A stretch of 15,087 bases of DNA from a virus (IMGVR_UViG_2698536392_000024:1-15087), one strand, 5' to 3'; counted from the stretch's first letter, positions 12,930-13,202 are shown. Numbers and translations are program-made. Notes: a model not told the origin generated them from the sequence alone.

Positions 12930-13109
12930 ATGACTGACAAATCATTAAAGAAATTATCCTCATCCAAGAAAAAACAACGCAAAAATGCGGTAAACGAACA
13001 TGAACCGGAGAGATTCACACCATGTGCGTTTGTCCTTGAAAAGTACCTTAAAGAGTATTCTAGGAAAATACGCTCATTGCAGGCATGGCAGCGAATCGAG
13101 CCAGACTGA
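12930..13109 (+). CDS. Hypothetical small basic protein (59 aa), second gene of the plus-strand unit
   Basis: ATG-initiated ORF MTDKSLKKLSSSKKKQRKNAVNEHEPERFTPCAFVLEKYLKEYSRKIRSLQAWQRIEPD, below the 60-aa track threshold; weak AGG-type RBS; sits between the RHH gene and the plus-strand terminator. Confidence 0.3.
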   Translation: MTDKSLKKLSSSKKKQRKNAVNEHEPERFTPCAFVLEKYLKEYSRKIRSLQAWQRIEPD

Positions 13110-13173
13110 TAGCATTGCCCACCAGCCGGCAACCTGGTATTCTGGATATGCTCAAGTTTAGTGTTATGCCACT

Positions 13174-13202
13174 GGCGACCGCTCCCGGTCGCCTTTGTTT
13201 TA
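13174..13202 (+). terminator. Rho-independent terminator closing the plus-strand RHH transcription unit
   Basis: Perfect 8-bp GC-rich stem GGCGACCG / CGGTCGCC with 4-nt loop, followed by TTTGTTTTA. Confidence 0.6.

Follow-up and report, generated by a model that had tools for sequence, protein, structure and literature searches.

The regulator unit opposite alpA

The window, by which we mean the whole 15,087-nucleotide stretch analysed, is an Escherichia coli chromosomal island whose insertion adjoins cspD/yljB, and strain 2013C-4830 carries 801 bp that are 100% identical to it. An integrase gene (13849-15087) and alpA (13221-13430) lie on the minus strand, the latter encoding an AlpA-family regulator (Pfam PF05930, E = 9e-16; PGAP annotation) and running convergent to a small plus-strand unit that consists of a regulator gene (gene 1, 12693-12872), a spacer of 57 nt (12873-12929), a short open reading frame (ORF2, 12930-13109) and a predicted intrinsic terminator (13174-13201). 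To the left of alpA, the minus strand carries an Icd-like/Ash ORF, DUF4222 and a P4-type primase, and the next ORFs were judged, from their translations and the gene order, to encode capsid, portal, protease, HNH and terminase proteins. This layout matches that of published capsid-forming PICI satellites, in which alpA is the known master activator (10.1101/2022.09.08.507074), and we take the element to be a PICI-like E. coli phage satellite of this kind. DNA matches to the locus were present in 1,670 of 5,426 complete E. coli genomes, i.e., about one third.

Some irregularities of the island deserve mention. The primase is divided between two overlapping minus-strand ORFs (9532-11139 and 10956-11360) and PGAP marks it as "frameshifted" in the identical genome; because of this split, this copy of the island may not replicate. 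Large-terminase-like ORFs, identified as such from the ORFs alone, likewise come in two minus-strand pieces (2209-2982 and 1322-2215) with a 7-nt overlap, which could reflect a frameshift or a sequencing error. Homologues of ORF2 were also present in two small records deposited as plasmids, NZ_CP148328.1 (10,790 bp) and CP088587.1 (32,560 bp), which might be excised circular satellites and not plasmids. Furthermore, Rfam models placed a C4 antisense RNA at 12204-12291 (minus; 72.6 bits) and isrK at 12313-12388 (minus; 69 bits), between the operator region and the Icd-like ORF and just upstream of the ORF2 unit. Two related loci (L004 and L003) have neither isrK nor C4, and there a leader peptide is joined straight to Icd, which suggests that the isrK-C4 cassette was inserted within the 5' part of icd, or that a deletion occurred elsewhere.

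Gene 1 encodes 59 amino acids and belongs to the YlcI/YnfO family of regulators (NCBIfam NF041551, E = 2.4e-20, 72.3 bits against a cut-off of 30; phrog_949). The initial annotation had called it a ribbon-helix-helix (RHH) gene; the family assignment can now be added, and the RHH fold is probable, albeit unproven. Its AlphaFold2 model (pLDDT 83.8, a monomer built from a shallow alignment) has helices at residues 19-28 and 35-58 after a short N-terminal segment, and hhalign aligned it in register with Arc at a weak probability of 18%, while the match to PF07704 (E = 0.027) fell below the family cut-off and a Foldseek search with the monomer model returned nothing. Substitutions in gene 1 are filtered on the sense frame. 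Among relatives, its DNA-binding part is swapped among several types, one of them an unrelated RHH-like type, and the block kept across relatives begins with the basic C-terminal tail of gene 1 and extends over the 57-nt spacer into ORF2, of which it takes in the first two thirds. In L017, L031, L034, L035, L048 and other loci, gene 1 has a longer form (about 100-106 aa), in which some 45 conserved residues (AEGSGENPLVSSLDALAQVEKIGVKAAEEIGQLVTVAREELQ) are inserted after the DNA-binding part and ahead of the basic tail.

Upstream of gene 1, a sigma-70-like promoter for the rightward unit is predicted at 12582-12609 (plus; TAGTCA-16-TATAAT, 10/12 consensus matches), and a predicted leftward promoter (12631..12602) has a -10 box, TATACT, that overlaps the rightward TATAAT. 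Three 9-bp palindrome cores with the sequence TGGATTCCA or TGGAATCCA (12594-12602, 12617-12625 and 12662-12670, within the region 12592-12673) cover both -10 boxes and the 5' UTR, and are putative operators for the gene 1 regulator; elements of Klebsiella, Serratia, Yersinia and Xenorhabdus that carry this type of regulator have the motif too. Divergent -10 boxes lying within TGGATTCCA-type palindromes are the layout that would be expected of a mutually exclusive promoter switch.

A same-strand regulator gene lies upstream of ORF2 in every locus, at a constant spacer length, and for this reason gene 1 and ORF2 are always in the same frame. No promoter or terminator was predicted between them. 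The constant spacer and the uninterrupted interval support the two-gene plus-strand unit proposed in the initial annotation, a small DNA-binding regulator followed by ORF2, and co-transcription of both genes up to a functional terminator appears quite probable. A fusion of gene 1 and ORF2 by stop-codon read-through was ruled out by one to two extra in-frame spacer stops in several relatives, and an RNA element in the spacer was rejected as well, the fold being no better than that of shuffled sequences (z = 0.55). An inverted repeat (GCGCCG...CGGCGC, 12890-12917) is kept in most relatives, has one pair broken in the window and showed zero compensatory changes or covariation among relatives. Known RNA families were absent from 12560-13260 at E <= 1.

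The unit is closed by a stem of 8 bp, seven of them G-C (13174-13181/13186-13193, plus strand), with a CTCC loop and the tail TTTGTTTT at 13194-13201. The folding energy was -16.6 kcal/mol (z = -5.0), a value that 0 of 200 shuffles equalled. A U tract follows the hairpin on the plus strand only, which makes the terminator one-directional. The stop codon of the convergent alpA (13221-13223) lies 20 nt past the T tract. Among 14 aligned relatives, the seven inner stem pairs are kept in 14/14, the TTTGTTTT tract is invariant and the loop is hypervariable; covariation is thin, with one compensatory G-C to C-G swap (three sequences, probably one event). Other lineages have an unrelated hairpin and T run at the same position. 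The strong plus-strand terminator described before alpA is therefore real, a genuine intrinsic (Rho-independent) one as predicted from its conserved structure.

Coding status and properties of ORF2

ORF2 starts with ATG and encodes 59 amino acids, including 10 Lys and 5 Arg, with a net charge of +7; the lysine-rich ORF that had been noticed behind the regulator gene is indeed there. Its size alone is not beyond chance, given that 3.6 kb contain 41 ORFs of 25 aa or more, and its significance consequently rests on conservation and comparative evidence. In this context, the frame was intact in 80 of 80 related viral-contig loci, down to 47% identity and with all indels in-frame, although these loci, confirmed by tblastn, were partly selected via protein similarity, which could favor intact copies. 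It was intact too in 7/7 loci from complete E. coli genomes picked by DNA similarity only (blastn), where it is mostly unannotated. Frameshifted copies are rare but present (P0146 and P0147). A protein search recovered 29 clusters, exclusively from Escherichia, with 63-100% identity and lengths of 58-68 aa.

Median dN/dS over 36 distinct sequences was 0.28 (Nei-Gojobori). By region, the core (residues 23-44) had a value of 0.10, the basic N-terminus 0.34 and the C-terminus 0.71, the latter two denoting weak constraint on the N- and C-terminal thirds. There were no nonsense changes among 194 single-base opportunities in these 36 sequences. Other frames over ORF2 gave 0.8-1.2, with the exception of the antisense frame that shares its third positions with ORF2 (0.39); two plus-strand ORFs of 53 and 52 aa that overlap ORF2 gave 0.8-0.9 and were discarded as not coding.

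Since the antisense frame is itself a long ORF, each substitution in ORF2 was sorted by what it does to the sense and to the antisense frame. Core changes that leave the sense protein as it is and alter the antisense one (9/41, 0.22) were about as frequent as doubly silent changes (16/93), which indicates that selection acts on the ORF2 protein. Doubly changing substitutions in the core stood at 14/501 (0.028; p = 1e-5 against 9/41), and those changing the sense frame and silent in the antisense at 5/51, a set made up wholly of E>D, K>N or H>Q exchanges. Such changes were about two to three times commoner than doubly changing ones, an excess that we put down to third-position exchanges of a conservative nature (E>D, K>N, H>Q) but that may also reflect some antisense constraint. 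Moreover, the silent sites of the core evolve fastest, and the constraint thus falls on the ORF2 protein, not on DNA or RNA.

At the start of the gene, the ATG is invariant, as is the CAGG motif 8 nt upstream (12918-12921), and the eight bases in between (-8 to -1) are hypervariable; the Shine-Dalgarno-like motif itself is weak (AGG, 8-nt spacing). On this comparative footing, ORF2 is very probably a protein-coding gene. The initial annotation had left this uncertain and pointed to frame conservation and dN/dS across relatives as the check; intact frames (80/80 and 7/7), dN/dS and the two-frame substitution test settle the matter toward coding.

The AlphaFold2 model of ORF2, also a monomer from a shallow alignment, had a pLDDT of 72.7. 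Residues 1-24 are disordered and Lys/Arg-rich, and they precede one conserved helix (residues 30-56, pLDDT about 90), which is amphipathic, with a hydrophobic moment of 0.44-0.57 and negative mean hydrophobicity, and displays a heptad pattern with F29, L36, Y43 and L50 at "a" and C32, Y39 and W53 at "d". The conserved core reads E-R-F-x-P-C-x-F-x-L-E-K-F-L-K. The sole family match was phrog_21027 (E = 1.2e-29), an uncharacterized PHROGs family; Pfam, NCBIfam, PADLOC, the PDB sequence search and Foldseek yielded zero matches, and homologues in deposited phage genomes were not found. A profile search of 1.84 billion representative proteins retrieved 10 proteins, every one from the same family, so that across the collections searched the ORF2 family is tiny and Escherichia-confined. 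One source labels the homologue P0004 as "RelE", a label unsupported by any profile search.

An antisense frame open across the unit

The long antisense frame, here called ORF-X, has 323 codons (12239-13210, minus), and its third codon positions coincide with those of gene 1 and ORF2. Its ATG lies 10 nt past the alpA stop and is preceded by AAGGG; from there ORF-X runs antisense through the terminator, ORF2, the spacer, gene 1, the operators and isrK to an end inside C4. Most relatives have GGGGAG instead of AAGGG, and the ATG is kept in alpA-adjacent types. In elements that lack isrK and C4, ORF-X runs in frame into the Icd-like domain. In the window, from 12497 toward 12239 on the minus strand, a GAGG-n5-ATG opens the peptide "MLNHTTHPQGRDSHNLNK..." in the ORF-X frame; the MLNHTTHPQGRDSHNLNK peptide is the N-terminus of the Icd-like protein in L004, and in the window its frame traverses the isrK promoter and gene.

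Within the non-coding segments of the window, not a single stop falls in the ORF-X frame, as compared with 10 and 12 in the two remaining antisense frames. Over 55 distinct loci together, the figures were 17 against 570 and 390, but the evidence throughout is comparative, and the shared descent of the loci means that such pooled counts overstate independence. Every E. coli locus has the frame open for 573-2457 nt, and elements of six other genera for 705-1317 nt; the open stretch includes 217 Serratia codons opposite no plus-strand gene, AT-rich Klebsiella cargo and brnT/brnA. In the Salmonella element (L093), the antisense frame is open across two RHH-like genes as well as brnT/brnA. For comparison, in ordinary genes of the window the equivalent antisense frame is interrupted by 1.4-5 stops per 100 codons, and one 82-codon ORF has none. 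Inside gene 1 and ORF2, the 32 sense-silent opportunities for a stop in ORF-X would have produced an expected 3-5 events, and 0 were seen; this within-gene avoidance is modest, and the case for ORF-X therefore rests on the non-coding segments and the other genera.

At the protein level, ORF-X behaves differently from the genes that it covers. No amino-acid constraint was detected in the spacer, which lacks three-base periodicity in the ORF-X frame (silent 0.061, changing 0.041), and substitutions opposite the ORF2 core and gene 1 ignore their effect on ORF-X. Pfam BRO-N or Icd domains, suggested by PGAP pseudogene calls on the minus strand opposite ORF2, gave no signal there. As judged from these comparisons, ORF-X is kept stop-free across genera with no detectable amino-acid constraint. 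Databases nevertheless hold 1,713 clusters of ORF-X (300-560 aa), mostly named "host cell division inhibitor Icd-like protein", and PGAP is inconsistent by genome, reporting plus-strand genes, a long minus-strand "Icd-like" protein or a pseudogene; where annotation disagrees in this way, the substitution analysis tells which of the frames are constrained at the protein level.

The most economical reading of ORF-X, which we offer as a conjecture, with other readings together holding the greater weight, would be that selection maintains the uninterrupted translation of transcripts reading through from alpA. Ribosomes would load just past alpA (or bro) and cross about 1 kb of "wrong-strand" sequence, and their passage would keep Rho off read-through transcripts up to the C4/icd control point and the replication genes. 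Stops in the ORF-X frame would be purged whatever cargo inserts, leaving the amino-acid sequence to drift. In P4 and P1, translation of kil/eta and icd, respectively, prevents Rho-dependent termination, and in both phages translation of a leader gene reportedly decides whether Rho stops transcription. A C-rich, G-poor Rho-loading region on the leftward RNA gave no clear signal. It is possible, though rather doubtful, that the whole picture holds, with ORF-X translated merely to be translated, as an anti-Rho measure; with the head-on collision of rightward regulator-ORF2 transcription and leftward alpA read-through acting as the on/off switch of the satellite; and with ORF2 as a young, Escherichia-only gene overprinted on the unconstrained ORF-X frame. 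Were ORF-X translated, it would offer a clear example from nature of translation itself being selected for.

Embedded antisense overlapping genes have been reported in E. coli O157:H7 (PMC9927249, PMC7103648), and ORF-X resembles these in its complete opposite-strand overlap with coinciding third positions. Here, in contrast, the short genes carry the amino-acid constraint while the long ORF is merely kept open, and the latter is often the choice of the annotation pipelines.

Distribution and possible role of ORF2

The regulator family is spread over Enterobacterales, whereas ORF2 is restricted to Escherichia. At least five genera have the regulator but not ORF2: in elements of Yersinia, Serratia, Pectobacterium and Xenorhabdus no second gene follows it, the Klebsiella element has an unrelated AT-rich 87-aa ORF in the slot, and the Salmonella element (L093, 2111-3328) has two different tandem RHH-like genes followed by brnT/brnA in the place of ORF2. 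Conversely, ORF2 also stands behind an unrelated regulator type without the basic tail (L003 and L036), and it was never found without an upstream regulator gene. In E. coli, its downstream neighbor is alpA or a bro-type gene, and the replication module and integration site vary among the ORF2-bearing elements. Since ORF2 stays conserved while regulator type, neighbor, replication genes and site vary, it occupies a cargo slot; and since the content of this slot is variable among genera, an obligate pairing, be it as toxin and antitoxin or as co-repressors, is disfavored, and the pattern fits better with a cargo effector that is expressed along with the repressor. ORF2 seems to need the promoter of the regulator and to be indifferent to which regulator precedes it.

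The best explanation of the whole is that ORF2 is the second cistron of a satellite regulator operon and encodes a cargo effector, a reading to which we give a probability of about one half. The anatomy of this operon (promoter and operators, gene 1, spacer, ORF2, terminator) is shown or strongly supported at the level of sequence. The unit would be expressed from the resident, uninduced island, so that ORF2 would be made in the quiescent state along with the regulator, and the terminator would spare alpA and int from antisense transcription. ORF2 might then act as an accessory cargo effector that binds a constant target of the host or of an incoming phage, protein or nucleic acid, instead of being the dedicated partner of this particular regulator. 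The effector part, as opposed to a component of the switch, is a tentative preference that falls a little short of an even chance and draws on distribution patterns only; it is favored over a switch component, a toxin and a non-functional shadow frame.

That ORF2 belongs to the switch itself, either strengthening or tuning repression by the regulator or inhibiting AlpA or a Bro-type antirepressor until a helper phage arrives, is rather unlikely, yet it has several points in its favor: ORF2 always follows a regulator on the same strand, with predicted co-transcription, and never occurs without one; its place is precisely the interval that separates the regulator from alpA, the activator gene; and a conserved nucleotide block runs from the basic tail of the regulator through the spacer into ORF2. 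Against it, the same regulator family does without ORF2 in Yersinia, Serratia, Pectobacterium and Xenorhabdus, the regulator type of L003 and L036 is unrelated and lacks the basic tail, and the downstream neighbor may be either alpA or bro. Co-factor and anti-repressor readings are thus weakened, because ORF2 is kept while the DNA-binding domain of the regulator and the downstream neighbor are swapped.

It is improbable that ORF2 is a non-functional shadow frame, held open by constraints on ORF-X and on DNA or RNA. Its position wholly inside a stop-free antisense ORF with coincident third positions and an antisense dN/dS of 0.39, its weakly constrained termini and its omission by PGAP from most genomes would fit such a frame, but in the core it is the effect on ORF2, not that on ORF-X, by which substitutions are filtered, ORF-X is free of constraint at the amino-acid level both across the spacer and where it faces the regulator gene, the start codon and Shine-Dalgarno-like motif are invariant, and the 194 opportunities for nonsense changes went unused. 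A type II toxin-antitoxin-like pair of an RHH antitoxin/autorepressor and an ORF2 toxin, as the initial annotation had also entertained, is very improbable and finds no support: the order of a small RHH-like autoregulator and a small ORF, the "RelE" label of P0004 and the brnT/brnA pair in the Salmonella slot recall such systems, but ORF2 matches no toxin family (Pfam, NCBIfam, PADLOC) and nothing in the PDB by sequence or fold, its model is a single helix with a disordered tail, the 57-nt spacer leaves no overlap or tight coupling, the regulator tail past the DNA-binding domain (about 12 residues) is too short for the usual neutralizing domain, and the regulator is widespread without ORF2, so that co-inheritance fails as well.

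Returning to ORF2 as a cargo effector, the closest analogues of the unit are cargo genes of repressor operons, such as lambda rexAB, and the immI regions of P22 and P1. In lambda, the accessory genes rexA and rexB ("morons"), which take no part in repression, are co-transcribed with the prophage maintenance repressor gene cI. ORF2 resembles them in lying downstream of a regulator, in its presumed expression from a silent element, in having its own terminator and in the variable content of its slot; unlike rexAB, with which it has no sequence or structural relation, it has only 59 aa, and PADLOC finds no defense match. With the immI regions of P22 (mnt/arc-ant, sar RNA) and P1 (c4-icd-ant), the locus shares a small repressor, of RHH type there and probably so here, at divergent or overlapping promoters that control an icd/antirepressor operon, along with a C4 antisense RNA, an Icd-like gene and convergent, antisense transcription. 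However, the second cistron here is no antirepressor homologue, the regulator belongs to the YlcI/YnfO family and not to Arc/Mnt (weak profile match only), and the regulator unit is nested antisense in a leftward ORF, an arrangement undescribed for P22 or P1.

Other likenesses are more distant. ParD/ParE, RelB/RelE and CcdA/CcdB place a small ORF behind a small RHH autoregulator, as the locus does behind its probable one, but their toxin fold, tight coupling and obligate pairing have no counterpart here. Single-helix phage regulators such as lambda CIII and the Kil peptides, and proteins with an arginine-rich motif such as lambda N, bear a resemblance to ORF2, which has a similar size (about 55-60 aa), constraint concentrated in one amphipathic helix and a basic disordered N-terminus; it differs from them in having no sequence similarity and in the conserved Pro-Cys between basic tail and helix. 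We found no literature on the gene 1-ORF2 pair, YlcI/YnfO/DUF3950 appearing only as annotations in lists, and the PICI literature consulted on regulation discusses alpA, the regulator-ORF2 unit being absent from it. ORF2 is, in brief, an uncharacterized gene of a familiar kind, and the nested, stop-free antisense ORF is the unusual part of the locus.

Gram-negative PICI satellites have been described as controlled by AlpA alone. In this regard, a conserved, putatively autoregulated repressor-like unit opposite alpA that also carries a small protein specific to one lineage points to a maintenance side of the switch that has gone unstudied, and ORF2 would be a very small candidate effector of islands resident in about one third of complete E. 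coli genomes.
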